Shown: piece by piece, positions 12,080-64,000 of the stretch
Layout: each line of letters opens with the position of its first letter
Position numbering within the stretch: position 1 is the stretch's first letter
NCBI GenBank assembly: GCA_029210545.1
Contig: JARGFV010000001.1
Location: forward strand, 3,500-67,499
Length of the DNA: 64,000 nucleotides
From: a bacterium
Lineage (GTDB): Bacteria > BMS3Abin14
Reading direction: 5' to 3'
Notes under the pieces: generated by a model
The model's input: only the letters and a program-made list of their open reading frames with translations
What the model was told of the DNA's origin: nothing
Database searches by the model: none
Made by a program: the position numbers and the translations under genes

Positions 12080-12256
12080 AACTTTGATGACTTCGCAAAA
12101 AGTCATCAACGCCCCCCGCGCGGGGCGCCCAAATCAATGACTCACTCCGTAAGTCATTGATTTGTAAGGAAAGGGAAAACGACGCTTTTCCCTTTCCCCA
12201 GGACATTAATGAGCCAGGAAAAGTCCCGGATTGGACTTTTTGCGACTCTATCAACC
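12080..12256 (-). repeat. Family-1 MITE-like element, copy A (five-hairpin composite; ends in TIR GTCGCAAAAAGTCC)
   Basis: Shares the ordered hairpin modules with copies at 15654, 19683, 53773 and 57226. Confidence 0.7.
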
Positions 12257-15653: not shown

Positions 15654-15858
15654 TACAGGGTCGCAAAAATGTCCAGGCGGGACTACTGTTAACCGCCAAA
15701 GTCCGTGCGGGCCTTCGGCTCAAGGGAAGGCGAAAAGCGTCGTTTCCGCCTTCCTCACCGAGACTGCTGATAATCACCGACATGTTTGCCGGTCACTGAT
15801 CTATGCGCCCCGCGCGGGGCGCATAGATGGACTTTCTGCATGTCCATCAACTTTGCAG
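15654..15858 (+). repeat. Family-1 MITE-like element, copy B (diverged middle)
   Basis: Starts 4 nt after the stop of the REC-PilZ gene. Carries the conserved end hairpins and the GCGCCCCGCGCGGGGCGC palindrome. Confidence 0.6.
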
Positions 15859-45981: not shown

Positions 45982-46346
45982 GGGTTCAGATCCATGTTGT
46001 TTACGGGATTCAAGACCATTCGCACCCGAGCCAGACCTCATTTCATTGAGCACCAGTGGCCGGAACAGTCAAATTCCGACCTCCTTCGACAGGCCCGGGG
46101 GTCGTTTCCAGCCTCCACCTGATCGGCTGCATTCAAGTGGCTATTAGAGAACCTCGTAAAAGCCTCTTCGAGCCATTTTACGAGCCCATAAAACTTTTCT
46201 GATGTTATATCATTTTCGGGTGGAAGTCTTGAGGTTAAATCCCGCCCGGATGGTTGCCGCACTTGACATGGCACCGGTTCATGATAGTAATATCTCCACC
46301 CGTTTGCCGCAGGGGAAAATGCACATAACGTGGAAAGGCTGCCCTT

Positions 46347-47686: not shown

Positions 47687-48528
47687 TTCCCGGAAATCTC
47701 CTTCCCGAGAGCATCCAGGACGAACCTCGGGAGGGCGAAACTCGCCAGATGGATATCCCCGTTGTAGTACCTGGTCAGGATCTCTTTCCTGCCGCGGTAG
47801 ACCGGGAGTGAATCCTCACCTTTCGCTCCCATGAGAAAACTCCAGGTCCCTCCAGGATAGGTGGTCACCGATGCCAGATAGAAGCCGGATACCGGATAGA
47901 CCCCCCTGATCCGTTCATGAACGTCGACCATGAACGGCAGGTGATAAAAAGGCGATTCGGACTGGGAGACAAAAACGCCTCCCGGGCCGACAGCCTGCTC
48001 ACAGCTTCGGAAAAACCCCTCCGTGAACAGGGCTTCGGCAGGACCCACCGGGTCCGTGGAATCTATCAGGATAACATCGTAGCTTCCCGGCGGCGCCTCG
48101 GCCACGAAACGGACACCGTCATCGTAGACGATCCTCGTCCGGGGATCGCCAAGACCCGCGCTGATATCGGGCAGGTATTCGAGGGCCGCTTCGACCACCA
48201 TCCGGTCGATCTCGACCAGGGTGACCTCTTCCACTTCCGGGTGTTTCAACACCTCGCGAACCGTTCCGCCATCGCCGCCGCCAATGATGAGGACCCGCCT
48301 GGGATCCCGGTGGGTGTTGAGGGGGATGTGAGCCAGCATCTCGTGGTAGACGAACTCGTCACGTTCGGTGAGCATGACCAGACCGTCCAGAAGCATCATC
48401 CTTCCGAACTCGTGTGTATCCAGGATGTCCAGGGTCTGGTACTCGCTTGCCCCGTGGTAGAGAGTCTTTTTGACCTCCATGGTGATCCCGGAATGGGGGG
48501 TATGCTTTTCCGTATACCAGATACTCAC
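47683..48528 (-). CDS. speE: Spermidine synthase
   Basis: [10 protein letters not shown] and the canonical N-terminal region MSIWYTE...YHE. Confidence 0.9.
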
Positions 48529-49007
48529 TTGAGCCTCTCCGAACTCCAGAGCACGACCGCCGCAAAGACCGCACCGGTATTTTCCACGTGATGGGATGCA
48601 GCGGCACTCTCGATATGCTTGACCTCAAGCCCTCTCATTTTCAGGCCTTCTGACGCCATGTCGCGACAAATCTGTTCGATCTCTTCAGACGGACCTGTAG
48701 CGCTGTACTCCATGATAAGACCGGGCATAGCCGGATCCGACGGAAAGGCGGCAGCCACGGCGGCAGAGATCGTCTGCCCCCTGATACTGCTGCCCATGGA
48801 GGCGTAGGCGACCGGGACCAGGGCACCAAGGGGCAGGGAAACCGGTTCGATGCGCTCGGCTCCCGGCGGCACGATACTGCTCATCTTGACCAGGTTGGTG
48901 TTGCCGATCCCGGAGGCGAGCAGGGCTCCGTCGAAAGCGTTGAGGGGCATGGTCCCTTCCGACGAGCCGCTGGCGAAGAAATAAACATCAGGGGTCCTGG
49001 TGATCAT
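48525..49007 (-). CDS. pdaD: Pyruvoyl-dependent arginine decarboxylase
   Basis: ~160 aa. [37 protein letters not shown] matches the PdaD self-cleavage region. Confidence 0.7.
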
Positions 49008-49049
49008 GCGGACTCCTCCCGGGTTGTTTGTGATGAACAGGAAAGCAGG

Positions 49050-49451
49050 TTAAAGGATGGCCCCCAGGCTGCCGGGAGGTTTGTGACAGGCATTCTCACC
49101 CAGAACGCGCAGTTCGCCTCGCGGGATCTCCCTGCACTCTGAATCTCCCGCCTTGAACACCTCCGCAAGGTGGTCGTGAGCGACCCAAGGGTCCACCTTT
49201 TCTCCGCAGGTGAAAAGGTCCACCGCCGCGTAACTGTATTCCGGCCAGGTGTGGATAGCCAGGTGGGACTCGGCTATGACCACGACACCGCTGATCCCGT
49301 GTGGGGCAAACCTTCTGAACACCGCGTCCACGATAGTGGATCCCGCCTTCACGGCAGCCTCTTTCATGGACCGCTCGACGAGATGAAGGTCATTCAGGAC
49401 TTCGGCGTCGCAGTTGTAGAACTCGACGAGAAGGTGCTTTCCCAATGCTTT
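49050..49451 (-). CDS. speH: S-adenosylmethionine decarboxylase proenzyme (class 1A)
   Basis: [16 protein letters not shown] ... [21 protein letters not shown] upstream of ATG 49451. Confidence 0.85.
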
Positions 49452-49467
49452 CATGATCTGTCTCCTC

Positions 49468-49501
49468 CAGCAGCGTGTCGGGGCACTTCGACACGCTGCG
49501 G
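49468..49501. repeat. Solo hairpin matching the family-2 MITE right end, between the regulator and speH
   Basis: CAGCAGCGTGTCGGGGCACTTCGACACGCTGCGG. Confidence 0.5.
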
Positions 49502-49503
49502 AA

Positions 49504-50055
49504 TTAATGAAAAACGGGAGGCGACACAACCCAGAGGATGGTCGCCGTCCTTTTACCCAGGTTCTCGATCGTATGCGGCCTGTCAGACTTGAAATAGAAA
49601 CTTTCTCCCTTGCGCACCCGATGGACGGTTTTGCTTCCTTCCATCCTGAGCTGGACCGTTCCGGAAAGGAGCATGCCGAACTCTTCCCCCTCGTGCCCGC
49701 TGTCGATGGAGGCCTTGCCTGGTTCAATGGTCACCAGGACAGGGTCCATCAGGTTCTTCTGGGCTCCGGGGATCAGGAGTTCGATGGTCTCTTCATCGTG
49801 ATCTCCCTCCAGGACGACCCTGTCCTTTTCCCCGAACACGATCTTCTGCTCTCCCAGCTCCATCACCTTGAAAAACTCCGACAACGGTATCCCGAGAACT
49901 TCAAGGATCTGGCTGAGGGCCTCGATGGAGATCGATGTGAGATCCCTTTCGAGCTGGGAGATAAAACCTTTCGTCAGGTCGGCCCTCTGGGCAAGTTCGT
50001 CCTGGGTCAGGTCGTTGGCGATGCGAAGCCGCTTGATCCTCTGGCCTATCTTCAA
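49504..50055 (-). CDS. XRE-family HTH plus cupin transcriptional regulator (PuuR-like)
   Basis: HTH_3 motif [24 protein letters not shown]-terminal cupin beta-barrel. Confidence 0.8.
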
Positions 50056-50287: not shown

Positions 50288-52390
50288 CTATGGCGGAGTC
50301 TCCACAATCCACTTCCCGTCGGAATAGCGTGTCACTCCCGTCCTCGTAGCGATCCAGACCTCACCATCCGGATCGGGGGCGATGAGAACGATCCCGGTCC
50401 CTGGAATGCCATCCTCTTTCGTATACGTTTTCCACTTTTCCCGGTCGTAGACGGAAACACCTTTGGGAGTGCCCACCCAGGTGTTCCAGTCTGAATCCAC
50501 GGCAACCGTCCTGATCTCGTCGTCGACCATACCGCTTTCCTTTGTAAAGATATGCCACTCCCTCGCGGGAGTATATTTGGCAAGCCCTTTCCGGGTCCCG
50601 AACCACCGGTTCCCGGCGTAATCCACAGCGATGCACAAGACCGTATCGCCGGGCAGACCATCCTTTGCCGTCAGCTTTTCCCTAACGGCTCCGTCCTTGA
50701 TGCGGACGACCCCCTTTTCCGTGCCCGCCCAGATAGAACCGTCCCGGTCAACACCCAGGCCGAGCACTTCCCTGGCCGGCAACCCCTCGTCCCTCGTGAA
50801 AGTGACGAACCCTTCCCCTTCCCTGAAGCGGTTAAGCCCCTCGTCGGTGGCGGCCCACAGGTCACCGGCCTCATCGATGACCATATCGTTGACAACGGTC
50901 CCCAGAAGTCCCTCCGTATCACCCACGAAGCTCCTGTCCCCCGACCCGACCCGATACAGGGCCAGACCGGACTCTGTCCCCATCCAGAACGTCTTGCCGT
51001 CGGTCACGCTCGGGAGGAGGAAGACACCCCTGGCGTACTTGCGCCAGACTCCGTTGACCAGGGTATACCTGTGGGTCTGTATCCTCTCCATGTTTCCTGT
51101 ACGATCAATGGAAAAGAACTTGAGGGTAGTGGGCCTGATGAATGTAAAACCGGAAAAGTAGGTGGGGCTTTCGGTATCCGGGTCGTAGCCGTCGAGGGTA
51201 TAATGGATCCGGGCGCCTTCCTCGGTCCTCAGGGTCACCCTGATGGGCGGGGGGTACTCACCACCCAACGGATCGGCTACAGTCACCGGCGCTTCATCAT
51301 CGAAAAGGTAGGTCTCCTCGTGGACATCTTCACTGTTACCGGACTGGTCGGAGGAAAAGAACTTCAGGACCGTATCGTTCCTCAGGACGAGAGGGTCCTT
51401 GTAGACGGGAGACTGCTCGCCAGGCTCGGTACCGTTGAGGGTGTAGAAGACGATGGCCTCCTCGTCGGAAACCGTTATCCTGACCGTCAGGGGAGGCGTG
51501 TAAAAGCCTGTGCCCGGATAAGCTTCTGAAAGGGGCGGTTCCTGATCCAGCCTGTAGAACTCATCGTAAACCCTGCTCCGGTTTCCCCCACGGTCTATCG
51601 CCAGGAATTTGAGCCGTGTGCTTTCGGTAAGCCAGAACGGCCCCTCGTAAAGCTGCGACATCTCTGTAGGATCCGACCCGTCAAGCGAGTAATAGATATC
51701 GGCTTCCTCGTCTGCGAAAAGCCTGAGGAGGTCGCCCGACCTGTAATTGGCGGGCAACGGGCTGACGCTGGCTTTGGGGGGAGTCGTATCCACGAGCCGG
51801 TCCGCGAGCCTGAACATGTACGACTCTTCCCGGATCGGCTCGCGGGAACCGTCCCTGTCAACGGCAAAGAACTTCAGCCTGGTGTCCACGGCAATGCTCA
51901 GGGATGTACGGTAGATATCGCTGTCGGTGGAAGGGTCTGAACCGTCCATGGTGAAGTAAATGGTGGCATCCTTCCGGGTAGAAAGAGACACCCTGACCTT
52001 CTGGTTATAGATCCCTCCCGGTGGGTGCGCTACGGTTCGCAACGCATCGGCGGACGGAGATTTCATCCGGATCCTGTAGAACGCCTCCTGGACGCTGCCC
52101 CGGCTCCCGTCCCTGTACACCACGAAGTAACGGATAACGGTATTGTCTGCGACCCTGATGGGATCTTTGAATACGGGAGAGCCCATGCTGGGTTCCGAAC
52201 CATCGAGGGTAAAGTAAACCTGGCGGGAAGGGTCGGTCTCGAAACGGACCTCGATGGAATCAGGATATTCACCGGGGGCCGGCGTCAGGGGGACCTCCTG
52301 GGCCACCGCCGGGAGAGGCGCCAGCCAGAGAAATACCGCTGCAGCCACAACGGTGGTTATCTGCAAAACGGTTCGTTTTGAAAGGTTCAA
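50288..52390 (-). CDS. Secreted CHB_HEX_C-repeat plus beta-propeller protein, paralog of 40318..43107
   Basis: Same module architecture as the 929-aa protein. Putative TTG start at 52390 after GGGAGG; the ORF is open to 52465. Confidence 0.6.
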   Translation of the reverse strand: MNLSKRTVLQITTVVAAAVFLWLAPLPAVAQEVPLTPAPGEYPDSIEVRFETDPSRQVYFTLDGSEPSMGSPVFKDPIRVADNTVIRYFVVYRDGSRGSVQEAFYRIRMKSPSADALRTVAHPPGGIYNQKVRVSLSTRKDATIYFTMDGSDPSTDSDIYRTSLSIAVDTRLKFFAVDRDGSREPIREESYMFRLADRLVDTTPPKASVSPLPANYRSGDLLRLFADEEADIYYSLDGSDPTEMSQLYEGPFWLTESTRLKFLAIDRGGNRSRVYDEFYRLDQEPPLSEAYPGTGFYTPPLTVRITVSDEEAIVFYTLNGTEPGEQSPVYKDPLVLRNDTVLKFFSSDQSGNSEDVHEETYLFDDEAPVTVADPLGGEYPPPIRVTLRTEEGARIHYTLDGYDPDTESPTYFSGFTFIRPTTLKFFSIDRTGNMERIQTHRYTLVNGVWRKYARGVFLLPSVTDGKTFWMGTESGLALYRVGSGDRSFVGDTEGLLGTVVNDMVIDEAGDLWAATDEGLNRFREGEGFVTFTRDEGLPAREVLGLGVDRDGSIWAGTEKGVVRIKDGAVREKLTAKDGLPGDTVLCIAVDYAGNRWFGTRKGLAKYTPAREWHIFTKESGMVDDEIRTVAVDSDWNTWVGTPKGVSVYDREKWKTYTKEDGIPGTGIVLIAPDPDGEVWIATRTGVTRYSDGKWIVETPP

Positions 52391-52609
52391 ACGGGCCTCC
52401 CGGGGCGAAAAATTGATGGTCCAGATGAGGTCGACGTTGCGCCATATTAGGGAATCCACCGGCAAATGGCAACGGGAACCCGAAACCAGGGCCTGGTTTC
52501 GGGTATGACTCCTCCGGAGAAAAACCGTAATGCGAGGTTATCCTGTAAATAGCTCTGCGATTCGACACTTAAACCGCCGAATCGCAGAGAACCTGCTATA
52601 ATCTTTGCC

Positions 52610-53725
52610 ATGACAAGCCAGACCACGAAAGCTCTCGCCTATTTCCCGGCGGAAGGGGCTGTCCGCATCATCGATGTGCCGGTGCCTTCCCTGGAAGCGG
52701 ATGAAGTCCTGGTGAGGATCACCCGGACCGCTTTTTTCCGGAGAGATCGTCTGCTCCTCGAGAGCAGGGATGCCGTGCTCCCGGATGGCGATAAATTCAT
52801 TATCCCCGGTCACATCGCTTCAGGAAGGGTGGTTGAGATCGGCTCCCTGGTCCGTGAACTTGAGCCGGGAGATCTCGTAGTCCCCACCATCCGGCGGGAC
52901 TGTGACAGGTGTATCGACGCCAGGAGCGACCTGTGCCCGCACCCTGAACGGTACAGCGACTCGGGTCTCAAGGGAGCACACGGGTTTGCCCGGGAGCTTC
53001 TGGTGGTCAAGAGCCGATACCTGGTCAAGATCCCGGAATACCTGGAGGATCTTGCCCTTCTCCTCACCCCCTTGAGCATAGCGGAAAAGGCTCATCACGA
53101 GGCGGTCCAGGTGAACCGACGGTACAACTTTTACTGCTACCACGAGTTAGAGGGCACCGCTCCCAGGGCCCTTGTCACCGGCATGGGGCCAGTGGGGATC
53201 ATGGCCGCATTTCTTTTGTCCCTTTACAATTACCGGTTGACCTTTTTCTGCAGAAGGGAATCGGATGATCTGCGGTCGAAAATATTCGACCCCCTCGAAC
53301 TCGAATACATCAACACCTGCCGCGTTCCTATCGAACGACTGGAAAAGGCAGGCTACACCTTCGGGCAGATCTTCGAGACCACGGGCGACCCGGCCTACAT
53401 TGTCCGGGTGATGCCGTTCATGGCCCCCAACGCCGTCATGGTCCTCATGGGCACCCCCGAAAAACTTTCCCGGGAAAACCTCCTCGAAATGGAAGCGAGC
53501 TACCTGTTTTCCCGGATGGTCATGGGCAACCAGATCATGGTCGGCAGCATCAAGGCCGGCCGGGACGCCTTCGACTCGGCGGTGAAACATCTCATGGAGC
53601 TTGCCGACCTGCACCACGACTCCCTGGCCGCCCTCATGACCCATTCCATCCCCCTGGAAGAGTACCGGCAGCTCCTGGAACTGACCTCGAGGGAGGCCAT
53701 CCTTCCGGTTTTGGAGCTGACTTAA
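52610..53725 (+). CDS. Medium-chain dehydrogenase/reductase family oxidoreductase (glucose/threonine dehydrogenase-like)
   Basis: GroES-like N-terminal domain with a structural Cys cluster CDRCIDARSDLC, followed by a Rossmann domain. TATAAT lies 9 nt upstream of the ATG. Confidence 0.5.
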   Translation: MTSQTTKALAYFPAEGAVRIIDVPVPSLEADEVLVRITRTAFFRRDRLLLESRDAVLPDGDKFIIPGHIASGRVVEIGSLVRELEPGDLVVPTIRRDCDRCIDARSDLCPHPERYSDSGLKGAHGFARELLVVKSRYLVKIPEYLEDLALLLTPLSIAEKAHHEAVQVNRRYNFYCYHELEGTAPRALVTGMGPVGIMAAFLLSLYNYRLTFFCRRESDDLRSKIFDPLELEYINTCRVPIERLEKAGYTFGQIFETTGDPAYIVRVMPFMAPNAVMVLMGTPEKLSRENLLEMEASYLFSRMVMGNQIMVGSIKAGRDAFDSAVKHLMELADLHHDSLAALMTHSIPLEEYRQLLELTSREAILPVLELT

Positions 53726-53772: not shown

Positions 53773-53932
53773 GATAGGGTCGCGAAAAGTCCAATCCGGG
53801 ACTTTTCGCTCCACGGAAAGGGGAAAGCGTGGTTTTCCCTTTCCTTATAAATCAATGACTTACAGTGTGAGTCATTGATTTGGGCGCCCCGCGCGGGGCG
53901 CGTTGATGGACTTTTTGCGAGTCCATCAAATT
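53773..53932 (+). repeat. Family-1 MITE-like element, copy D
   Basis: GATAGGGTCGCGAAAAGTCC ... GGACTTTTTGCGAGTCCATCAAA. All five hairpins present. Confidence 0.75.
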
Positions 53933-54591
53933 TCGGTTCATCACAATAATGCGTACCTGTGTGTTGTCACTCCAGGACTCTTAAAGGCGATCACCACGGA
54001 GCACACAAAGAAAGCCTGAACCTGGGGGAAGACTCAGGCGCGCACCGCAAAACCCCTGAACCCTGGCGCGAAGCGCCCTTCGATCACGCCGTTGGCGTGA
54101 TAAAGCCGGGCGGAGCGGCCTTTAGCTGACCGCGCTCCCCAGAATCTCGATTGAATTGATTTTCGAGATTCTGGGGATAAAAAAACCCCATTGGCGTGGT
54201 AAGTTACGTTTCAAGCTTGAAACGACCCATGACACAATGACAGCCCATGCCGGTCTGGCCCGGGCGAGTTCGCGGAAGGGAGCAGGCTTCCCTTTCTGGT
54301 GGACCGTCACCTGCCGTTGCCCGGCAGCGGGGCCGGTTATCGTCCGTCGGAGTTCGTGATGCCATACCCGAAATTCGCCGAAAGCGCCCTTTCGGTCGGG
54401 GCTGGACGGTCAACGAGTGACGTAGGGCGGCAAGTTCAACAGCAACACGGCTCCATGCAAAAAATAGCCCCCTCAATGCCCCGACCGGAGGCCAGCCAAA
54501 ACCAATCGCGGATTTCGGGTGGTTAGTTGGCTTTTTCCTGCAATAGCGTTAATAACTGTTTTTTAGCTGTTAGCTGCCTGTTGGAGATCCA

Positions 54592-55830
54592 TTGAATCCG
54601 GAAGAGCCCATCCATAAAAAACCGGGCACCAGCAAGGCTGCCTTAGCCACTACTCTGGCTACAGGAGCGGTCGCCGTGGCTGTGGCGGGAGCCATGGTCA
54701 TGGGTATTTTGGAGCGGCTCACACCTACACCACCGGTTCAGGTGGAGGTGCTCCGGTCAGCCCTTCCCGACGGGGCGCGTTTTCAGGACCGGTCCGATCC
54801 CCTGCCCCACTTTCCAGGTATCGATGGAAATGGGGAGAAAATCGGTGCGGTCATCCTCACCGATGAGCTGGCCCCCTCCGTACAGGGTTATCTCGGCCAG
54901 GTGGGAACCGCCGTGGGCCTCACCCCGGACGGACGGATCGCCGCCGTTCGGCCTTTCCGCCACAAGGAGACCCCATACTACATGGAGATGGTGATAACCT
55001 CGGGTCTCCTGGATGAGATTGCCGGGATCGACATGGCAAAACCGTTCCCCGACCTAGACGCCGTGTCGGGAGCCACGATAACTTCCCGTGCCCTCATCGA
55101 GGATGTCAGGCTCTCCGCCGCCAGGGCCGCACAGGCTCTCTACTCCATCCAGGTCCCCGAACCGGAGGCAAGACAGCGTGGACCGGTACCGTTCTGGAAA
55201 GAGAGTCTCCTCGCAGTGACCCTGCTCCTCTCTTTCACAGCCGGCTTTTTGGGAAACGGGTGGTTCAAAAGATACGGGATGGGGCTGCTCACCCTGGCTG
55301 TAGTGGGCCTGATCCTCAACACACCCCTCACCCTGTCGGCTATTTCGCGCATCCTGCAGACGAACCTGCCCGGTACCGGCAACTGGGCCTTGCTGCTCCT
55401 TGTCCTCTACATCCTCATCTCGTCACCTTTTCAGGGAAGGGCCTACTGCCGCCACGTCTGTCCCTTCGGGACGCTCCAGGTGCTGCTCCATCGCCTTTCA
55501 CCCATGCAGGTCAGGGTGCCTTCCGGTGTCAACGTCTGGCTGCCGGCTATTAAACGGGCCTTTGCCGCCCTGCTGATCTGTATCGGTATCTGGGGCGGGA
55601 TGGGAGGGTTTACGGAAATCGAGCCCTTTTTCAGCCTTTTTTCCTTCAACCTGACACCCCTCCTGTGGATGATGGTGATATTCGTACTTGCGGTTTCGAT
55701 TTTCTGGAGACGGTTCTGGTGCAACACCCTGTGTCCGACGGGCACCCTGCTGGCCCTTTATTGCAGGGCCACCCGGCACGGGAAGGGGAAAAGGGATGAA
55801 ACGATCCAGGAGTCTGCTGAAGAGATATAA
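54592..55830 (+). CDS. FMN-binding domain fused to a membrane polyferredoxin (NosR/NapH-like)
   Basis: FMN_bind motif DAVSGATITSRA. Two ferredoxin-type Cys clusters, CRHVCPFG and CNTLCPTG, sit within TM segments. Putative TTG start after GGAG. Confidence 0.6.
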   Translation: MNPEEPIHKKPGTSKAALATTLATGAVAVAVAGAMVMGILERLTPTPPVQVEVLRSALPDGARFQDRSDPLPHFPGIDGNGEKIGAVILTDELAPSVQGYLGQVGTAVGLTPDGRIAAVRPFRHKETPYYMEMVITSGLLDEIAGIDMAKPFPDLDAVSGATITSRALIEDVRLSAARAAQALYSIQVPEPEARQRGPVPFWKESLLAVTLLLSFTAGFLGNGWFKRYGMGLLTLAVVGLILNTPLTLSAISRILQTNLPGTGNWALLLLVLYILISSPFQGRAYCRHVCPFGTLQVLLHRLSPMQVRVPSGVNVWLPAIKRAFAALLICIGIWGGMGGFTEIEPFFSLFSFNLTPLLWMMVIFVLAVSIFWRRFWCNTLCPTGTLLALYCRATRHGKGKRDETIQESAEEI

Positions 55831-55938
55831 TAGATTCTTGAATATCGTTTGTCGGAAAACCATGAACGACTGGACTCACGCCAGCATAATTTTAAATGAG
55901 TTTCAAATTGTAATAAAAAAACTCGAGAGAAACTTAAG

Positions 55939-56229
55939 ATGAAAAAACGCATTTCCCGACAAATTTTCAAGCAGCGTGCCGAGGTTTCCAGGCACGCTGC
56001 TCGGGAACTGTCCGGAGGGTGGGCGGTGTTACTGCTGATCATCACAGTACTCATGGCCCTGGCCGTCGGCTGGCACCGCGAGATCGCCTCCAGATACCCG
56101 ATATCGGACCTGCCCTTCGTGGATCTTCAGCGTCTTTCAAATCAGATCGAATCGGGCAACGTCGGTAAAACAGGAGCGCTGTATTACAGGAAAAGTGATG
56201 CTGGGGCTGATACCACCGAGATCCGTTGA
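55939..56229 (+). CDS. Small hypothetical single-TM protein (doubtful)
   Basis: ORF with one hydrophobic helix. A MITE-type hairpin lies at its 5' end and the 3' end overlaps the radical SAM gene. Confidence 0.2.
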   Translation: MKKRISRQIFKQRAEVSRHAARELSGGWAVLLLIITVLMALAVGWHREIASRYPISDLPFVDLQRLSNQIESGNVGKTGALYYRKSDAGADTTEIR

Positions 56230-57187
56230 GTGCACCTTGTGCCCGAAATTGTGCCGCCTGGCCGAGGGCCAGCGCGGGGATTGCCGGGTACGGTACAACG
56301 ACGGGGGGAACCTTTACTCCCTTGTCTACGGGAAAGTGTGCTCGGTCCATGTCGATCCTGTGGAAAAGAAACCGATGTACCATTTCCTCCCGGGCTCCGG
56401 GGCCTTTTCCGTTGCCACCGCCGGATGCAACCTCCACTGCCTGTTCTGCCAGAATTGGGAGATATCCCAGGCCGATCCGGAGGATCTCAACAATTCCGAT
56501 CTGCCTCCGGAAAAAGCCGTAACCCTGGCTGCCAAAGCCGGTTGCGCTTCCATCGCCTATACCTATTCGGAACCTGTGATCTTTTACGAATATCTGGAGG
56601 ATACCGCCGCCCTGGCCCGGGAAAGGGGCATCCGCAACATCATGGTCACCGCGGGGTTCATCAACCGGGACCCCCTCCGCCGCCTCTGCAAGATCGTGGA
56701 CGGCGCCAACGTGGACCTGAAGGGGTTCACGGAAAAATATTACAGGGAAGTCTGTTTCGGGAACCTGCGCACCGTCCTGGACACCCTGGTCACCATGCGG
56801 AAAGAGGGTGTCGTCCTTGAAGTGACCAACCTCATCGTTCCCACCCTCAACGACGGGATGAACACCATCAGCCAGATGTGCCGGTGGATTGTGTCCGAAC
56901 TGGGAGACGAGGTGCCCCTTCATTTTTCCCGCTTCTCACCCATGTACCGGCTCAAGGACCTTCCGCCCACCCCCGTCCAGACCCTGAGAAGGGCACGGGA
57001 GACCGCCCTGGAGGCGGGGCTGAAGTACGTGTACACGGGCAACGTGCCCGGGGACCCCGGGGAGGACACCTTCTGTCCCTCCTGCGGGAAGATGGTCATC
57101 GACCGCCACGGGTACCGCATCCTGAAGTACGACGTGGTGGACGGGAAGTGTAAATATTGCGGCCAAAAAATCTACGGATTATTTTAG
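56195..57187 (+). CDS. amrS: AmmeMemoRadiSam system radical SAM enzyme
   Basis: Radical SAM Cx3Cx2C CNLHCLFCQNWEIS. N-terminal CTLCPKLC cluster. C-terminal CPSCG...CKYCG zinc ribbon. PFL-activase-like length. Confidence 0.8.
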   Translation: MMLGLIPPRSVECTLCPKLCRLAEGQRGDCRVRYNDGGNLYSLVYGKVCSVHVDPVEKKPMYHFLPGSGAFSVATAGCNLHCLFCQNWEISQADPEDLNNSDLPPEKAVTLAAKAGCASIAYTYSEPVIFYEYLEDTAALARERGIRNIMVTAGFINRDPLRRLCKIVDGANVDLKGFTEKYYREVCFGNLRTVLDTLVTMRKEGVVLEVTNLIVPTLNDGMNTISQMCRWIVSELGDEVPLHFSRFSPMYRLKDLPPTPVQTLRRARETALEAGLKYVYTGNVPGDPGEDTFCPSCGKMVIDRHGYRILKYDVVDGKCKYCGQKIYGLF

Positions 57188-57225
57188 GCCGCAGCACGAA
57201 GCGCAAAGTTCGAAGAACGAAGGAA

Positions 57226-57380
57226 GATGGACTCGCAAAAAGTCCATCAACGCACCCCGCGCGGGGTGCCCAAATCAATGACCTGTACCGTAAGTCATTG
57301 ATTTGTAAGGAAAGGGAAAACGACGCTTTTCCCTTTCCGTTGAGCAAAAAGTCCCGGATCGGACTTTTTGCGACCCTGTC
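57226..57380 (-). repeat. Family-1 MITE-like element, copy E, between amrS and the amrB-amrA fusion
   Basis: Reverse-orientation copy with all modules. Ends GGACTTTTTGCGACCCTGTC. Confidence 0.75.
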
Positions 57381-57454
57381 AAGGAAGAGCTTGCAAAAAA
57401 GTCCTTCCATTGAATCATTCCCTTTGTTCTTAAGTAACATGAGGGCAACCTAAA

Positions 57455-59125
57455 ATGAAACATAACGCGTCAAATCCGGACAAAAAAAGCAAAGGAAATA
57501 GCAGCGACCTCCCTTCGCGCTTCGCTCTTCGCGCTTCGTGCTGTCCTGACTTTACGAAGGGTATACAGATAATATCGAGAAGGGACCTGATTCGTATGTT
57601 CGCAGGTCTTTCAATAATTGCACTCGTCCCATTCCGCTGGTCGGTTCGTAAAGTCAGGACTTCCGTGAGCCGGAAGGAAGCGTCCTTTTACAGGAAGCTG
57701 GTCGTCGCCGGGGTCTGCCTCCTCCCACTGGCCCTCACCCCTTCCATTGCTTCCGCAAAATCAGTGTTTGAGCCCGTTGTCGCTGGCGGGTTCTACCCGG
57801 CCGACGCGGCAAAGCTGCGAGCCCTGGTGCGCTCCTGCATCGACAGCGCCGGCCTGCCGTCGGTCAAGGGGGAGATCCTGGGCCTCGTCGCCCCCCATGC
57901 CGGTTACGTCTATTCCGGGCCGGTGGCCGGGTACGCCTACAGGGAGCTCAAGGGCAGGAAGTACGACATCGTTGTCATCATGGCCCCGTCCCACACCGCC
58001 CCCCTGAACGGGGTGTCCATCCTGGATGTGGACGCCTACCGCACACCGCTGGGGGAGGTTCCTGTCGACAGGAAATCGGTGCGGGCCCTCATCGACCAGA
58101 TCCCATGGATCAGCCACGTCCCGGCCCTTTTCACCCGGGAGCACTCCATGGAGGTCCAGCTGCCGTTCCTCCAGGTGGCCCTCGAGCCGGGCTTTTCCAT
58201 CGTCCCTGCCGTCATGGGAACGGCGGACCCCGACCTTGCCACCGCCTTCGCCACTGTACTGGCCCGCCAGTTCCGGGGCCGGAAAGTCCTTTTCGTGGCC
58301 AGTTCCGACATGTCCCACTATCTGGAGTACGATGCGGCCAAAATCAAAGACACCGGAACCCTGAAGATCATCGGCAACGGGGAGATCGACACATTATATC
58401 GCCGGTGTTCCACCCGGGAATCGGAGCTGTGCGGCCTGGGCCCGGTGCAGACGGTCATGCACCTCGCCGAAAAGATGGGGATCGAGGGGGGGACACTGCT
58501 CAGGTACTCCAACTCCGGTGACACCGCGGGAAACCGGACAAGGGTGGTGGGGTACGGCTCCTTCGCTTTCGTGAACCCGGCAGGGGAGCTGGCCCTGGCC
58601 GACAAGCAGGCCCTTTTGGTCCTGGCCCGGAATACCCTGGAGCAGTACGTGCGGACCGGCAAACGTCCCGACATCGTGCCCGGCTCATCGGCACTAAAGG
58701 AACCAGGGGCTGCTTTTGTCACCCTGAAGCGCCGGGGTGAGCTGCGTGGCTGCATCGGCCAGCTGAGGCCCACCATGCCCCTCTATCAGTCCGTGGTGGA
58801 GATGGCGGTCTCCTCGTGCAGCAGGGACATGCGCTTTACGCCGGTCAAGGCTGAAGAGCTTCCCGATATCCGGGTCGAGGTCTCGGTGATGTCGCCCTTC
58901 ATGAAGGTGGGCGGCGTCGAGGAGGTCGAGGTGGGGCGGGACGGCCTTTACCTGACCTGGCATGGAAGGAGCGGCGTGCTCCTGCCACAGGTCCCGGGAG
59001 AGCAGGGGTGGGACAGGGGGGAGTATCTCAAGGCGATCTGCAGGAAGGCGGGGCTGCCGGATAAGACATGGGAGAAACCTGGCGCAGAGCTTTACAGGTT
59101 TAGCGCCCAGGTGTTCAGTGAGTAA
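57455..59125 (+). CDS. Fused AmmeMemoRadiSam system protein B (Memo-like) and protein A (AMMECR1 domain), with an N-terminal extension of ~105 aa
   Basis: Memo region LVAPHAGYVYSGPVAGYAY ... SSDMSHY. AMMECR1 region GELRGCIGQLRP ... LLPQV. The N-terminal extension contains a hydrophobic, signal-peptide-like segment. True start is uncertain. Confidence 0.75.
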   Translation: MKHNASNPDKKSKGNSSDLPSRFALRASCCPDFTKGIQIISRRDLIRMFAGLSIIALVPFRWSVRKVRTSVSRKEASFYRKLVVAGVCLLPLALTPSIASAKSVFEPVVAGGFYPADAAKLRALVRSCIDSAGLPSVKGEILGLVAPHAGYVYSGPVAGYAYRELKGRKYDIVVIMAPSHTAPLNGVSILDVDAYRTPLGEVPVDRKSVRALIDQIPWISHVPALFTREHSMEVQLPFLQVALEPGFSIVPAVMGTADPDLATAFATVLARQFRGRKVLFVASSDMSHYLEYDAAKIKDTGTLKIIGNGEIDTLYRRCSTRESELCGLGPVQTVMHLAEKMGIEGGTLLRYSNSGDTAGNRTRVVGYGSFAFVNPAGELALADKQALLVLARNTLEQYVRTGKRPDIVPGSSALKEPGAAFVTLKRRGELRGCIGQLRPTMPLYQSVVEMAVSSCSRDMRFTPVKAEELPDIRVEVSVMSPFMKVGGVEEVEVGRDGLYLTWHGRSGVLLPQVPGEQGWDRGEYLKAICRKAGLPDKTWEKPGAELYRFSAQVFSE

Positions 59126-59129: not shown

Positions 59130-59400
59130 CCCGAGAACCGTTTTATAACGGCCACCAATAGCACATCATCTGTCCCTCGACTTCGCTCGCGGTTCGACAA
59201 AGCTCACCGTCCTGAGTTTATCGAAGGAGGACCCTGAGCCTGTCGAACGGGCTGCGTTCTCACCCCTCGGAAACCCTCGAAGTACCCGGCAACGGACGTC
59301 TTCCGCCTTCGCTAAAGCTACGGCGTGACAAGCCGGTTTCCTCGGGGTTCTGGCCTTGCATCTGACGCACTCTTGGCGGCCTCACTTTAAATGAGGTGCG
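59130..59400 (-). repeat. Family-3 dispersed repeat, copy 2 (inverted relative to copy 1)
   Basis: 59145-59189 matches the reverse complement of 20186-20233 (40 of 45 nt). Downstream blocks cgtcttccg.ctt.gct and ggcgtgaca.g are shared. Confidence 0.55.
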
Positions 59401-59562
59401 TACTTTCTGATATTCGGGAACGGCACTGTACCGGTTTGCCGCTCAGGTTTTTCCGGGATGATCCAAAATCCTGATTTCACCGGAGAGAACGCGAAAGAGG
59501 TCGTACTGTGGTAAGTTAGCCTTTGACCTCCTTTGTAAGCTTTGCCATTCACCTAGGAGTCT

Positions 59563-59722
59563 GTCGGAGAACCTCATACAGACTCCTAGCTGGAGTTTAT
59601 CGGAAAATGGCATGTTTAAAAAAACCAAGCAATTCGGATAGTTACAACCGACTTTAATAAAAAGAATCATCTTCCGACAAACATATCTAGCAGCGTATCG
59701 GGGTTTTCCGACACGCTGCTAG
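59563..59722 (+). repeat. Family-2 MITE-like element, copy c
   Basis: CTAGGAGTCTGTCGGAGAACCTCATACAGACTCCTAG ... CAGCGTATCGGGGTTTTCCGACACGCTGCTAG. Confidence 0.75.
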
Positions 59723-59932: not shown

Positions 59933-61228
59933 GTGATGAAAAAAGTAATAATGTTTTCGACACTCGTGATCCTTGTGCTGATCTACCGGCCAGCCGGAGC
60001 GGGATGGCTTGGCGACACACTGAACAGCGCAATAAAGGGGGCTGGAAAGGACATCGTTTACGATGCGGTGGATTCCGCTTCCGGCAGCGCTTATCGGAAG
60101 GTGAAGAATAACCTTGCGGGGGAAGCGTCCGGAAACCCGGACACCGCTGTCCGGCCCGACGCGGAGGCGGCTGCCGGGGTACCGGCTTTCAATTCGCCCG
60201 AAGGCACCATTCGGGGAGAGGAAAGGTACAGCCGGTTCGATTTCATCCCGGGATCCAAGGTCCTTTTCTTTGACGATTTTTCCGACACTGAGGTGGGCGG
60301 GTTCCCCATGCGATGGACCCTCGAAGGGCCAAACGGCGGGGGCAACACCCTGGATGTGATCTCCTGGGCCGGGAGCCATTATTTCCGGAGTCGACCAGCG
60401 GGAGAGGGAAACGGCCAAAGTTGCACCGGTTCCTATCTGCGGTTGAAAGGTCTGAAAGATCTTCCCCAGCGGTTCACAATCGAGTTCGACGCCATCCTTG
60501 CCGGAGAACAAACGAGTTGGGAGAAAGCCTATGGGATTCTGCTGCTCAGCGACGTATACGATCCCCATGACTCTCCAAACCCTGTTTTCCCGGGGAATTC
60601 CGGAACATTCTATTTTTCGGACATATTTGCACGATCCGCTCACTCTGAATCCGAATTCCTCATCCAGGACCAACTGCCCCACCACATCGCGATTACTGTT
60701 GATGGCACGGCGGCCAAGGCCTACGTCGACGGCGACCTGGTGATTAACGACCCTGAAGCGGTCAACCGTCCTATTAGCCTGGTAGGCATGTATTGGGAGA
60801 TTTCGTTGGAGCACAGCGTGGATTGGTTCATGTTTACAAATTTTCGTCTGGCGGAAGGAGGAAAGGAATTCGGGCAGGTGTTGGAAACCGACGGGAGATT
60901 TATCGCTCCGGGCATCCGTTTCGACACGGGATCAGCGATCCTCCTTCCTGAATCCCTCCCCACCCTTCGTTCCATTCAGGCCCTGCTCCAGGAGCAGCCG
61001 TCACTTCCCTTCCTCATTGAGGGGCACACGGACAACCAGGGCGGAGACCAGGTCAACGAGCCTCTCTCGCAGGAGCGGGCGGAGGCGGTGCGGGATTGGC
61101 TCATGGTCCAGGGGATCGAGCCGAATCGCCTGGTTGCGAGGGGTTTCGGGTCACGCAGGCCGCGCAGCACCAACGACAACCCGGAAGGACGCAGCCTCAA
61201 CCGCCGGGTGGAATTCGTCCGGCAATAG
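59933..61228 (+). CDS. OmpA-family protein (signal peptide, middle beta-rich domain, C-terminal OmpA-like peptidoglycan-binding domain)
   Basis: C-terminal motifs FDTGSAIL, EGHTDNQG, RRVEF. RBS AGGAGG upstream. Confidence 0.8.
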   Translation: MMKKVIMFSTLVILVLIYRPAGAGWLGDTLNSAIKGAGKDIVYDAVDSASGSAYRKVKNNLAGEASGNPDTAVRPDAEAAAGVPAFNSPEGTIRGEERYSRFDFIPGSKVLFFDDFSDTEVGGFPMRWTLEGPNGGGNTLDVISWAGSHYFRSRPAGEGNGQSCTGSYLRLKGLKDLPQRFTIEFDAILAGEQTSWEKAYGILLLSDVYDPHDSPNPVFPGNSGTFYFSDIFARSAHSESEFLIQDQLPHHIAITVDGTAAKAYVDGDLVINDPEAVNRPISLVGMYWEISLEHSVDWFMFTNFRLAEGGKEFGQVLETDGRFIAPGIRFDTGSAILLPESLPTLRSIQALLQEQPSLPFLIEGHTDNQGGDQVNEPLSQERAEAVRDWLMVQGIEPNRLVARGFGSRRPRSTNDNPEGRSLNRRVEFVRQ

Positions 61229-61257
61229 GCCAGCCGGAGCATGGCGCCGGTCTAGTT

Positions 61258-61325
61258 TGTCATGCACCTGGCCAAAAAGATGGGGATCGGGGACGGGGCA
61301 CTTCTTAAATATACATCCGGGCTTG
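61258..61325 (+). pseudogene. Remnant of a second Memo-family gene (~68 nt)
   Basis: tgtcatgcacctggccaaaaagatggggatcggggacggggcacttcttaaatatacatccgg parallels 58444-58510 of the Memo gene, encoding VMHLAKKMGIGDGALLKYTSG against VMHLAEKMGIEGGTLLRYSNSG. Confidence 0.55.
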
Positions 61326-61378
61326 ACGCGGCCGTTGGAGGGGGGTCCGGAATGACGGCTTTTCTCATCTTCCCCTCT

Positions 61379-62431
61379 TTACCGCCTCGGCATCGAATAC
61401 CACGTCCCCTTGCCGGTGCCGTGCTGTTCCAGACGGCCCTGTTTCGCCAGGCGTCGGAAGTGTACCTTGAGCGTGTTACGGTTCGCCCCGGTCACGGTGA
61501 CAGCCTCGGCCATCGTCAGCCTCCCCCGCTCCCTGATTACCTGAATAATCCGGGAGGACAGGGCCGGAATCCTGTCCAGTTCCTTTTCACGATTCAGCTT
61601 TCTCGCCAGGTTATCCTTTTGCGCCTTGAGCGCTTTCAGGAAGAAAAGGATCCAGTTGTCCAGGTTCTCATCCCCGGTCCTGATCCCCGACTGGGACGAC
61701 CTGAGCGCCCTATAGTACTCGTCCTTGTTCTCTTCCACCACACGCTCAAGGGAGCTGTAGGGGACATAACCGTACCCGTTCCTGAGCAGCAAGAGTGTGG
61801 TCAGGATGCGGGAAAGGCGCCCGTTGCCGTCTTGAAAAGGGTGAATAGCCAGGAAGTGGATAACGAAGGCGGCGATGACGAGCAGGGGATGAAGGTCATC
61901 CTGATCAAAAGCCTGGTTGACGCTCTCAACCAACCGGCCCATCAACCCGGGAGTATCGAACGGCGTGGCGGTTTCAAACACAACCCCCAGGCTGTTCCCT
62001 TCCTTGTCGAAGGCTTCCACATGATTGGGATGTTTCTTGTACTCACCCCTGTGCGGCGCGTCGCGGACGCTGTAGCGAAGCCCGATCCCGTGGAGTTGCC
62101 TGATGTGATTCTCGTCCAGTGGAATGTGCTCCCATGAGTCGAACACGGTGTTCATGGCCTCGGCGTATCCGGCAACTTCTTCCTCGTCCCGGGACCTGAA
62201 GGAGATGGTGTCAAGACCGCTCAGGAGAGACTCGACCTGCGCATCCGTGAGCCTGGCCCCCTCGATCCGTGTGGATGAACCGACAGACTCGATAAAGGCG
62301 ACCCGGCGCAGTCCAGCCACAGCGTCTGGCGGGAGGTGCTCGAGCATGATCCACCGCCCCTTGAACTCGTCGATCCCGGCGATAAGCTTGAGGATCTCCG
62401 GGGTGATTTTGAAGACATGGTCATGGATCAT
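61379..62431 (-). CDS. Fic-family protein (AMPylator fold) with a C-terminal winged-helix domain
   Basis: Fic motif HPFQDGNGRLSR. N-terminal Fic_N-like region. Confidence 0.85.
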   Translation of the reverse strand: MIHDHVFKITPEILKLIAGIDEFKGRWIMLEHLPPDAVAGLRRVAFIESVGSSTRIEGARLTDAQVESLLSGLDTISFRSRDEEEVAGYAEAMNTVFDSWEHIPLDENHIRQLHGIGLRYSVRDAPHRGEYKKHPNHVEAFDKEGNSLGVVFETATPFDTPGLMGRLVESVNQAFDQDDLHPLLVIAAFVIHFLAIHPFQDGNGRLSRILTTLLLLRNGYGYVPYSSLERVVEENKDEYYRALRSSQSGIRTGDENLDNWILFFLKALKAQKDNLARKLNREKELDRIPALSSRIIQVIRERGRLTMAEAVTVTGANRNTLKVHFRRLAKQGRLEQHGTGKGTWYSMPRR

Positions 62432-63297: not shown

Positions 63298-63981
63298 TCA
63301 GCGGCCCTTACCTATTGATAGGCCCGCCGCGATGGCCACCGAGAGCAACAAGCAGTACCGGATCGGGGCGTACAACCCGATGGCAAGGGGCAGCACCAGT
63401 CCGCACACAACCGTCCCGAGAGCGGCTCCGAGAAGGTCCACGCCGTAGGCGGCCCCGCCCGGATATTTCACCCCGGCGGACTCCAGCAGGGCGCTGCCCG
63501 CTCCGAAGCTCATGCCCGTCAGCAAGCCGGCCCCGGTCATGAGGAGAAGGTAAAGAAGGAGGCCGGCCCATTCCTGGAGCACCCAACCAGGATCGATCCA
63601 CACCGTGACCGTCACGAGCAGGAAGTATCCTGTCCACAGCCACGCCGTTCGAGAGGGCTGAGCGTCCCGGACCATGGCCCCGAGTGCCATTCCCACCATA
63701 AAAAAGGCTAGCAGCAGAGCCATGCGGGAGTAGAGGTAGCCGAAACCCGTCTGGTACAGGTACATGAGCGCCGTTTCCGCCGCGATCCCCGAAAATCCTC
63801 CCAGGAAGAGGACCAACAATCCCCTCGTGGTCTCACTCCTCATAGTCCCGGCGCCAAAACCACCAAAGATCACCATCACAAGAACAGCTACAAACAGGTA
63901 CCACGCAACACCGTTTCCGATGGCTGACAGAAGCCCGGCGTCGGCGGTGCGGCCTCTCCACAGGGTGAGACGGTATCCCAC
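63298..63981 (-). CDS. Polytopic membrane protein, possibly 5'-partial at the window edge
   Basis: Six or more TM helices. The ORF reaches to within 19 nt of the window end. Confidence 0.4.
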   Translation of the reverse strand: MGYRLTLWRGRTADAGLLSAIGNGVAWYLFVAVLVMVIFGGFGAGTMRSETTRGLLVLFLGGFSGIAAETALMYLYQTGFGYLYSRMALLLAFFMVGMALGAMVRDAQPSRTAWLWTGYFLLVTVTVWIDPGWVLQEWAGLLLYLLLMTGAGLLTGMSFGAGSALLESAGVKYPGGAAYGVDLLGAALGTVVCGLVLPLAIGLYAPIRYCLLLSVAIAAGLSIGKGR

Positions 63982-64000
63982 GGCCGAGGGGACGAGATCG

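Follow-up and report, generated by a model that had tools for sequence, protein, structure and literature searches.

An AmmeMemoRadiSam locus with a probably exported Memo-AMMECR1 fusion beside a NapH-like membrane protein with an FMN-binding domain

In which compartment does the AmmeMemoRadiSam system work, and from which protein does it draw its electrons? Both questions are raised by a locus in a 64,000-nt stretch of bacterial DNA (contig JARGFV010000001.1, positions 3,500 to 67,499; the whole stretch is called the window), where the radical SAM (S-adenosylmethionine) enzyme AmrS and a fused AmrB-AmrA protein (B-A) are encoded next to a membrane protein with a flavin mononucleotide (FMN)-binding domain. 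MEMO1 and AMMECR1, which the two halves of B-A resemble, are conserved from archaea to humans and linked to disease, and the standing biochemical prediction for them is RNA base modification. The reading favored here, to which an even chance is given, is that the locus encodes an envelope-associated subtype of AmmeMemoRadiSam in which the NapH-like membrane protein would carry electrons to the envelope-located system. Comparison loci from other genomes are designated by L-numbers (L002, L087 etc.). The genes and elements involved are the following, MITE standing for miniature inverted-repeat transposable element, TIR for terminal inverted repeat, TSD for target site duplication and ORF for open reading frame.

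52610..53725, plus strand: MDR-family dehydrogenase (Pfam ADH_N and Glu_dehyd_C), first gene of the ancestral operon
53773..53927, minus strand: MITE copy of 155 bp with TSD AAATTT, between the dehydrogenase and FMN_bind/Fer4_5 genes
54592..55830, plus strand: NapH/NosR-like membrane protein of 412 aa (Pfam FMN_bind and Fer4_5; same product in NCBI, P0121)
55939..56229, plus strand: small single-pass membrane protein, conserved from about 55990 (79 aa in relatives)
56198..57187 (ORF from 56195), plus strand: amrS, radical SAM enzyme (TIGR04337, 394.9 bits against a cutoff of 220)
57226..57380, plus strand: MITE of 155 bp with five hairpin modules and 20-bp imperfect TIRs
57455..59125, plus strand: fused AmrB-AmrA (TIGR04336 and TIGR04335, Pfam)
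63298..64000, minus strand: 3' part of the gene of a SpeE-like (Spermine_synth fold) polytopic membrane protein (tblastn, 47% identity to a 734-aa protein of L087)

The locus is a complete AmmeMemoRadiSam gene set made of AmrS and a fused Memo-AMMECR1 protein, as had been proposed in an earlier note drawn from the sequence alone. The cutoffs of TIGR04337, TIGR04336 and TIGR04335 are all passed, and amrS, ending at 57187, is followed on the same strand by the B-A gene from 57455, an order likewise found in relatives. The B-A product matches TIGR04336 over residues 106-372 (262.9 bits against a cutoff of 26; Pfam Memo, 213.7 bits) and TIGR04335 over residues 386-554 (170 bits against 99; Pfam AMMECR1, 181.4 bits), and the metal ligands of Memo and the RGCIG and DxRF motifs of AMMECR1 are invariant in the homolog alignment. 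The hidden Markov model (HMM) searches suggested in that note on three proteins gave what it expected: Memo and AMMECR1 models passed by the fusion, TIGR04337 passed by AmrS, FMN_bind found in the third. None of the outcomes that the note had named as refuting it was observed. The radical SAM enzyme does have a Cx3Cx2C motif plus extra Cys clusters (CNLHCLFC, an N-terminal CTLCPKLC...C and a C-terminal CPSC...CKYC). The fusion is no distinguishing feature, being the usual architecture of this subfamily: the 120 best homologs all carry Memo and AMMECR1 in one protein of 467-599 aa, named 'protein B/protein A' by JGI, and AMMECR1/dioxygenase fusions with a radical SAM neighbourhood were published in 2007 (Balaji and Aravind 2007, PMC2034487). 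The dehydrogenase, the small membrane protein, the SpeE-like protein and the second MITE that splits the operon upstream come in addition to what had been noted.

Compared with the AmmeMemoRadiSam system as defined (TIGR04335/04336/04337; PMC2034487), the locus shares all three components, the documented fusion and the Memo and AMMECR1 motifs. It differs in the bipartite export-type N-terminus of B-A, in the presence of the EAxYY segment of AmrS on a separate small membrane protein, and in being embedded in a conserved operon that also encodes an MDR dehydrogenase and a NapH-like FMN protein, with a link to a SpeE-like membrane protein. The Memo half is similar to human MEMO1 (PDB 3BCZ, 7KQ8; E 6e-20) and the other half to the archaeal AMMECR1 homologs PH0010 (PDB 1VAJ; E 5e-32) and MM0484 (1ZQ7). 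MEMO1 and the archaeal AMMECR1 proteins are separate soluble cytosolic proteins, whereas the two are fused behind signal-like sequences in the window.

Within the lineage of the window, a five-gene operon is invariant. In relatives, this ancestral block comprises the ADH_N/Glu_dehyd_C dehydrogenase, the FMN_bind/Fer4_5 protein, a 79-aa ORF, AmrS and Memo-AMMECR1. The first two genes are separated by 3 nt (they overlap in L004), the second overlaps the 79-aa ORF by 14 nt, the latter overlaps amrS by 32 nt (the gene call of L087 excepted), and B-A follows after ~100-290 nt. The dehydrogenase gene lies directly 5' of the FMN_bind/Fer4_5 gene in L002, L004, L087, L088 and all clade metagenome contigs with upstream sequence. 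The window operon was remodelled at three junctions with all reading frames intact. The dehydrogenase and FMN_bind/Fer4_5 genes are set apart by the second MITE copy (53773-53927) and ~660 nt of unassigned sequence (53928-54591), a gap that has no counterpart in relatives; an AT-rich insert, ~110 nt, lies 5' of the small membrane-protein gene; and the amrS/B-A junction contains the other MITE plus ~180 nt. The ancestral start codons of the small gene (MKR...) and of B-A (MNxISRR) are lost, in 55831-55989 and 57381-57565 respectively. Replacement in-frame ATGs are found further upstream in both genes, behind AT-rich sequence of this genome only.

The product of 54592..55830 had been described as an FMN-binding membrane polyferredoxin. 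An FMN_bind/Fer4_5 membrane protein it is, but 'polyferredoxin' is a misnomer: the 412-aa protein contains neither a ferredoxin domain, stopping 19 residues past its second CX3CP motif, nor a Cx2Cx2Cx3CP motif. Pfam FMN_bind (PF04205) covers residues 99-172 (40.4 bits) and Fer4_5 (PF12801) matches in two stretches (61.2 bits). The flavinylation-type motif DAVSGAT (Thr162, codon 55075-55077) and the two CX3CP motifs (C286-P291 and C377-P382, in CRHVCPFG and CNTLCPTG) are kept in 30/30 clade homologs. Hydropathy gives about six transmembrane (TM) helices, an N-terminal anchor and about five after FMN_bind, which fits the NosR/NapH topology; the FMN_bind domain is predicted to face outward and the CX3CP motifs to lie inside. 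The NapH-like class is a modular extracytosolic flavinylated electron-transfer apparatus, characterized by an N-terminal anchor, an FMN_bind domain with D-x-x-S-G-A-T and then TM helices with CX3CP (Meheust et al. 2021, PMC8238504). By its sequence features (PF12801 CX3CP motifs, N-terminal FMN_bind, D-x-x-S-G-A-T motif, predicted topology), the window protein falls into this class, flavinylation itself being predicted. Matches to NosR, NapH and RnfG models are weak and far below cutoff. NosR membership failed (NF046105, 42.8 bits against a cutoff of 1000, model positions 495-616 only), with no nos genes nearby, and so did NapH membership (TIGR02163, 41.2 bits against 213; NF007013, 30.6 bits against 234). 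The protein is shorter than NosR (412 vs ~700 aa) and does not have its C-terminal 2x[4Fe-4S] ferredoxin domain. In contrast with NapH-like systems, whose characterized members include NosR and PceC, its gene lies outside any nos, nap or rdh cluster. AmmeMemoRadiSam, its candidate partner here, is not mentioned in the text of PMC8238504 or in its supplements searched.

The same protein had been taken for a dedicated electron-delivery partner of the system. Comparison gave support to this idea, the linkage being invariant in the clade and recurring in other lineages, but the gene is absent at most diverse loci. Within the lineage, the linkage, which a survey of related genomes was meant to check, is conserved in L002, L004, L087 and L088 with FMN_bind/Fer4_5 protein identity down to 45%, and the small gene and AmrS come next in 10/10 clade metagenome contigs reaching past the FMN_bind/Fer4_5 gene. 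This linkage alone could be inheritance and is weak evidence, because the wider neighbourhood is also syntenic. At 80 phylogenetically diverse fused B-A loci, tblastn with a single sequence detected the gene nowhere, bar one weak match; distant modules were found by the clade HMM and Pfam instead. FMN_bind/NapH-type modules recur beside genuine AmrS (TIGR04337, 342-388 bits) in at least five further lineages, in one of them as part of a fused gene. In L107 and L108, the FMN_bind/Fer4_5 protein shows 30-33% identity; after the module, L108 encodes first a membrane ORF of 78 aa that also carries EAxYY and then a genuine AmrS. In L111 and L118, FMN_bind and Fer4_5 are combined with a DsbD_2 membrane domain and the gene overlaps or abuts that of a genuine AmrS. 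In a Myxococcales-type lineage (L062, L092, L093, ERZ1426829), FMN_bind and Fer4_5 are fused to the C-terminus of a SpeE-like protein whose gene lies 12-37 nt 3' of B-A, in the order AmrS, small ORF, B-A, fusion; this architecture comprises ten protein clusters with identity down to 32%. Four Acidobacteriota loci (L015, L016, L018, L047) encode a Fer4_5 polyferredoxin, DUF6599 and DUF362 upstream of AmrS-B-A. An FMN_bind gene lies 85 nt before B-A in L028, and a Fer4_5/Fer4 gene is found nearby in L060.

Some further observations concern these neighbourhoods. The fusion proteins (1170-1335 aa, with two CX3CP motifs) are always encoded directly 3' of a lipoprotein-type Memo-AMMECR1 gene, at 9471-13097 in L062, 6001-9639 in L092 and 2701-6492 in L093. 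DUF362, often in two or three copies, and DUF6599 adjoin AmrS/B-A in L015, L016, L018, L020, L044, L046 and L047, mainly Acidobacteriota. RsmE, a 16S rRNA methyltransferase, is encoded 3' of B-A in L005, L024, L028, L029, L030, L032 and L057 (Omnitrophota, Planctomycetia and related), and a MiaB/MtaB-type methylthiotransferase adjoins it in five of these seven loci; RsmE and MiaB are probably incidental housekeeping genes there.

The landmarks of the B-A N-terminus, all on the plus strand, are listed here with the two domains.

57455-57562: leader specific to this genome (first 36 codons)
57563: ATA where the ancestral ATG stood
57575-57583: S-R-R of the twin-arginine-like motif
57596 (ATG) and 57665 (GTG, the NCBI call): alternative starts
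57698-57757: second hydrophobic stretch, ending in ASA/KS
57770-58570: Memo domain
58610-59116: AMMECR1 domain

An extension of ~105 residues with one signal-peptide-like stretch had been reported for B-A. The open frame and signal-like hydrophobic stretches are indeed present, but only residues ~40-105 (~66 residues) are conserved, among homologs at 55-80% identity, and their layout is bipartite and not that of a single signal. In the conserved order, the twin-arginine-like motif ISRRxLxKM and a weakly hydrophobic stretch come first, then a linker that is strongly basic, then another hydrophobic stretch. In the window, SRRDLIR and a 13-residue hydrophobic h-region, both conserved in the clade, precede the basic linker and the second h-region, with no AxA after the first. 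The second stretch closes with a lipobox-like Cys in most clade members and with AxA in the window. The lipobox of signal peptidase II (SPase II), [LVI][ASTVI][GAS]C, is not found in the window B-A (...TPSIASA/KS), its Cys being present in many distant homologs.

The B-A proteins of relatives start with MNxISRR or MKLLSRR. The window retains S-R-R with synonymous changes at all three codons, and the twin-arginine (RR) segment is constrained, less than the sequence downstream, because 14 synonymous are found against 15 nonsynonymous codon changes relative to L091. The sole in-frame start covering this segment is ATG 57455, with GAGGG 9 nt 5'. The long ORF from 57455 is plausible and the start is ambiguous: the NCBI record of the identical protein (P0001) begins at GTG 57665 (486 aa), and this shorter start would still keep a signal-peptide-like N-terminus. 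Low third-position GC was considered as a sign that the 5' extension is non-coding and was rejected, the same dip being seen in relatives whose ATG is normal. The ancestral start is flanked by a perfect inverted repeat of 16 nt that occurs nowhere else in the window (57543-57558/57645-57660); its right arm holds the AGGA before GTG 57665, and it is not conserved in the closest relative L091.

The small membrane protein bears on the location of AmrS. A canonical AmrS starts with ...EAxYY(E/K), followed after 7-9 residues by CxLCPxxC, and the AmrS of loci whose B-A has no signal begin right there (13/13). Positions 1-21 of the TIGR04337 model correspond to EAKFYQK...C.LCP; the window AmrS, whose start is most likely ATG 56198 with AGGA 6 nt 5', begins MLGLIPPRSVEC and aligns to the model from position 11 on. 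The EAxYY segment is here at the C-terminal end of the small protein (...GALYYRKSDAGADTTEIR; clade ending pattern ...GRTEAIYYRKxYAGADTTEIR), whose identity across the clade is 46-76% and whose gene overlaps amrS by 32 nt in another frame, matching relatives. In L111, L015 and L118, a hydrophobic or membrane segment, a linker and an EAxYY-type motif are contained within a single AmrS of 386-416 aa. The simplest reading is that the small protein would be the N-terminus of AmrS split off by gene fission, because the segment absent from the window AmrS sits on the small protein and on these fused equivalents. A programmed frameshift from the small ORF into amrS was ruled out: the AGGA before ATG 56198 fits translational coupling, and the joined product would misplace YY relative to the first Cys. 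Among characterized radical SAM enzymes, the nearest relatives of AmrS are PflA, NrdG and YjjW (44-46 bits). AmrS shares the Cx3Cx2C core with these activases of the pyruvate formate-lyase (PFL) type, but adds N- and C-terminal Cys motifs, bears a twin-arginine-like N-terminus in many lineages and has no glycyl-radical enzyme partner nearby.

No component other than the SpeE-like protein, which has ~13 TM helices, contains a SAM-binding fold; crude helix counts in the fusions favor a cytoplasmic SpeE-like domain (4/6 sequences). Its gene, convergent to the operon, runs past the window end. In L087 and L088 it lies ~250 nt 3' of B-A, whereas in the window a Fic gene, a gene of the OmpA family and Memo/AMMECR1 relics have moved it ~4.2 kb away. 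The OmpA-family and Fic genes are probably an insertion, because B-A and the SpeE-like gene are adjacent in relatives. The OmpA-family protein (59933-61228) has an N-terminal domain of no assigned family, and the Fic-domain protein is encoded at 61379-62431 on the minus strand. Directly 3' of the OmpA-family gene, at 61241-61333 (possibly to 61489) on the plus strand, lies a decayed Memo fragment with stop codons ('APV*FVMHLAKKMGIGDGALLKYTSGLDAA'), 78% identical in DNA to 58434-58500, which looks like debris of a second B-A copy. A short stretch at 59399-59452 on the plus strand, 275 nt past the B-A stop, reads 'RTF*YSGTALYRFAAQVF' and weakly (E ~0.03-0.5) resembles the extreme C-terminus of B-A (KTWEKPGAELYRFSAQVF). 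On the opposite side of the operon from the SpeE-like gene, a polyamine cluster (46820-50055, minus strand) encodes an arginase-family protein, spermidine synthase, AdoMet decarboxylase and an HTH-cupin regulator; synteny of this cluster extends to relatives, which have PvlArgDC as well.

Across phyla, signal-like N-termini on B-A co-vary with those on AmrS and with the presence of a SpeE-like neighbour. Localisation was called by hydropathy and regular-expression rules of our own. A signal-like hydrophobic N-terminus was scored in 98/109 fused homologs with a resolvable N-terminus, many of them followed by Cys in lipoprotein-like fashion. Among 78 independent loci, B-A has such an N-terminus in 44 and none in 34. 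The SpeE-like neighbour is found at 21/44 signal-bearing and 0/34 signal-less loci (Fisher p = 7e-7), and an RR-type or hydrophobic extension of AmrS at 21/28 loci with signal-bearing B-A and 0/13 signal-less ones (p = 4e-6), in tests that ignore phylogenetic relatedness. The 28 AmrS proteins from signal-bearing loci comprise 15 twin-arginine-like (for instance SRRDFFKK, DRRGFLKA, ERRYFLKC, NKREFLKQ), six Sec-like hydrophobic and seven scored signal-free by rule, two of which look RR-like by eye. FMN_bind/Fer4_5 modules were seen solely beside signal-bearing B-A and at 0/34 signal-less loci, 14 of which have AmrS nearby. From these N-termini, export of B-A is likely; export of AmrS is only suggestive. 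In the L062/L092/L093 lineage, AmrS has no signal and a separate 55-75-aa ORF stands between amrS and B-A (L092 4222-4389; L093 854-1033; L062 ~7600-7830). These ORFs, which match no Pfam or NCBIfam family, carry textbook RRxFLK motifs (ERRAFLK, SRRSFLG) and a shared C-terminal (D/H)LAG. Homology of the 79-aa protein of the window with those of L092 and L093 was considered and is unsupported (23-27% identity).

In the envelope-associated arrangement proposed here, the Memo-AMMECR1 protein would be exported or anchored, facing the periplasm. The NapH-like protein would take electrons at its cytoplasmic CX3CP iron-sulfur site and pass them across the membrane to covalently bound FMN on the outer face, then to extracytoplasmic redox centres, of which the Memo metal site would be the recipient. 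Where AmrS is exported by the twin-arginine translocation (Tat) pathway, the conduit would also reduce the radical SAM cluster, replacing ferredoxin or flavodoxin. The small protein would tether AmrS to the membrane beside the NapH-like protein, and SAM, or a substrate derived from it, might be supplied or bound by the SpeE-like protein; that this protein hands SAM or a SAM-derived group across the membrane is speculation. A more ambitious version, held only tentatively and as a joint claim, distinguishes two compartment types of AmmeMemoRadiSam, the present one being an extracytoplasmic radical SAM system. AmrS would then be exported folded via Tat or in complex with a twin-arginine-bearing partner (here the B-A extension), Memo-AMMECR1 would be a periplasm-facing lipoprotein, the flavinylated NapH-like conduit would stand in for ferredoxin or flavodoxin outside the cytoplasm, and the SpeE-like polytopic membrane protein would provide SAM or a SAM-derived substrate.

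Several points weigh against an envelope-located system fed by this conduit. Besides the rule-based localisation calls and the neglect of relatedness in the Fisher tests, the Tat model TIGR01409 gives no match to the window B-A extension, and among eight AmrS N-termini only that of L018 passes its cutoff of 16.7 bits (19.9), four scoring 12-15 and three nothing. No signal sequence is present on the window AmrS itself, which may remain cytoplasmic here. Some AmrS N-termini look Sec-type, which is hard to square with iron-sulfur cluster insertion. An exported radical SAM enzyme would need SAM outside the cytoplasm, for which we know of no precedent. No ApbE was found among the ~30 window ORFs scanned. 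Of the 80 diverse loci, the majority lack an FMN_bind/Fer4_5 gene within 5 kb, so the module is accessory and not universal, and two distant homologs of the protein (P0153 and P0154, 32% and 27% identity) have unrelated neighbours and no adjacent AmrS.

In a first alternative, the NapH-like protein would serve only a cytoplasmic AmrS, tethered next to it by the small protein, with the inner-face CX3CP site donating the electron for SAM cleavage (or accepting electrons from an oxidative reaction of AmrS) and B-A uninvolved. The tightest and most recurrent adjacency is that of FMN_bind/Fer4_5, small protein and AmrS, whose genes overlap in the clade and in L108, and FMN_bind/Fer4_5 and AmrS genes overlap or abut in L111 and L118; the gap between amrS and B-A is larger, and the window AmrS has no signal. 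Radical SAM enzymes always require a reductant, which also counts for this explanation. It is nonetheless held to be unlikely, since it leaves unexplained the outward-facing, flavinylation-competent FMN_bind domain of 30/30 homologs, the restriction of the modules to loci with signal-bearing B-A and the fusion of the module behind a 13-helix membrane protein in the L062 lineage. Alternatively, the hydrophobic N-termini could be anchors that leave the catalytic domains in the cytoplasm, acting on an inner-face or cytoplasmic substrate, for instance in RNA or nucleotide base modification; RNA base modification was predicted and argued for by Balaji and Aravind (2007, PMC2034487). The two hydrophobic segments of the clade B-A, with their strongly basic linker, could fold as a hairpin whose two ends stay inside, both SAM and the assembly of iron-sulfur clusters are cytoplasmic, and RsmE and a MiaB-type enzyme are encoded near some Omnitrophota and Planctomycetia loci. 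These neighbours are limited to few related lineages, however, and most homologs have one textbook lipoprotein signal (basic n-region, h-region, lipobox Cys), which predicts export. The lipobox Cys after the second segment is conserved in most clade members, and the AmrS extensions at 15 loci are twin-arginine-like and not simple anchors, which makes this explanation rather unlikely.

The dehydrogenase offers another partner: the FMN_bind/Fer4_5 protein could be its electron outlet and lie beside AmmeMemoRadiSam by lineage synteny only. In relatives, the two genes overlap or leave 3 nt between them, synteny extends over the entire neighbourhood, polyamine genes included, so that conservation alone is weak evidence, and P0153 and P0154 have unrelated neighbours. 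But the dehydrogenase is absent from all other linked lineages (L108, L111, L118, L062-type fusions, Acidobacteriota), while the link with AmrS recurs independently, including as a gene fusion next to B-A; this role is considered improbable. It would be a real surprise, finally, if the operon were simply decaying in this genome, its genes uncoupled or silenced by the insertions at three junctions and the lost ancestral starts. Inserts are found at the dehydrogenase/FMN_bind-Fer4_5, FMN_bind-Fer4_5/small and amrS/B-A junctions, B-A has ATA in place of its ancestral ATG, the small gene no longer has its ancestral MKR start, and relics of a Memo/AMMECR1 copy lie downstream. Yet all five frames are intact and full length, as are the catalytic motifs, both start-shifted genes have an upstream in-frame ATG with a Shine-Dalgarno-like sequence (the GAGGG before 57455 in B-A), and the RR segment shows an excess of synonymous change relative to L091 (the 14 against 15 nonsynonymous given above).

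If the more ambitious version is true, Memo/AMMECR1 substrates would have to be sought not in RNA but in an envelope molecule. The envelope-associated reading, if true, would be a first case of radical SAM chemistry taking place outside the cytoplasm and would give the system a compartment (the periplasmic membrane face), a redox partner (the flavinylated NapH-like conduit), a partner of AmrS (the small anchor) and a candidate SAM-handling membrane protein. Should it prove wrong, a known system is still represented here by a well-defined locus with unusually many genes, in which MITE insertions have remodelled an operon and left its genes intact. Neither the system nor the fusion is new; the envelope-type layout with conduit, split AmrS anchor and SpeE-like partner appears new in the literature searched, which contained nothing on what AmmeMemoRadiSam does, on exported radical SAM enzymes or on membrane partners resembling spermidine synthase and did not include Burroughs et al. 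2019. The latter reportedly extended Memo contexts to 'aliphatic isoprenoid modification', and part of the present context may be published there.

The element between amrS and B-A is a MITE, as the earlier note had claimed, with TIRs, TSDs, dispersed copies and insertion polymorphism. Its TIRs match at 16/20 positions (14-16/20 across copies), and it is flanked by a perfect 6-bp TSD (AAGGAA at 57220-57225 and 57381-57386). Its RNA would fold into five stacked hairpins (-77.2 kcal/mol, z = -8.45). The site at the amrS/B-A junction is empty in L091, L004, L002 and L087. Three further full copies (12086-12252, 19683-19870, 53773-53927) each have a 6-bp duplication; the TSDs of the four copies are AAGGAA, AAATTT and AAAGTT, all perfect, and AACTTT/AACCTT (5/6). 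The full copies are non-coding, of 155-188 bp, and with a partial one amount to four full and one partial in 64 kb. The partial copy, at 15792-15854, retains only the first two or three hairpin modules. The MITE may have the regulatory role suggested in that note, but promoter and terminator scans gave nothing above chance. No Rfam family matched the MITE and no cognate transposase was identified in the window. The stretch 54156-54359 was considered as a transposase remnant and dropped, with 0 NCBIfam matches and 0 tblastn matches in plasmids. Like Correia/NEMIS-type and REP/BIME repeats, the MITE is small, carries TIRs and TSDs, occurs in multiple intergenic copies and folds strongly, but it has its own five-hairpin layout and a 6-bp duplication starting with AA.

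A second repeat family of ~55 nt with a palindrome (ACCTAGGAG...CTCCTAGG) is found at 4535-4589, 28636-28690 and 59551-59605, the last copy being intergenic and 3' of B-A. Within a 509-aa ORF (7416-8945), tandem units spaced 111 nt apart with 60-70% identity extend over 7935-8666; this array is probably a repeat-containing protein. A scan of the window with Rfam at the gathering threshold found one tRNA only (416-488). Closer to the operon, an actin-like ALP_N/MreB-like_C protein adjoins a TIGR04442-family protein (546.8 bits) at 43104-46053 on the minus strand, and two large paralogous CHB_HEX_C/Fn3_assoc/Reg_prop proteins are encoded at 40318-43107 and 50288-52465.

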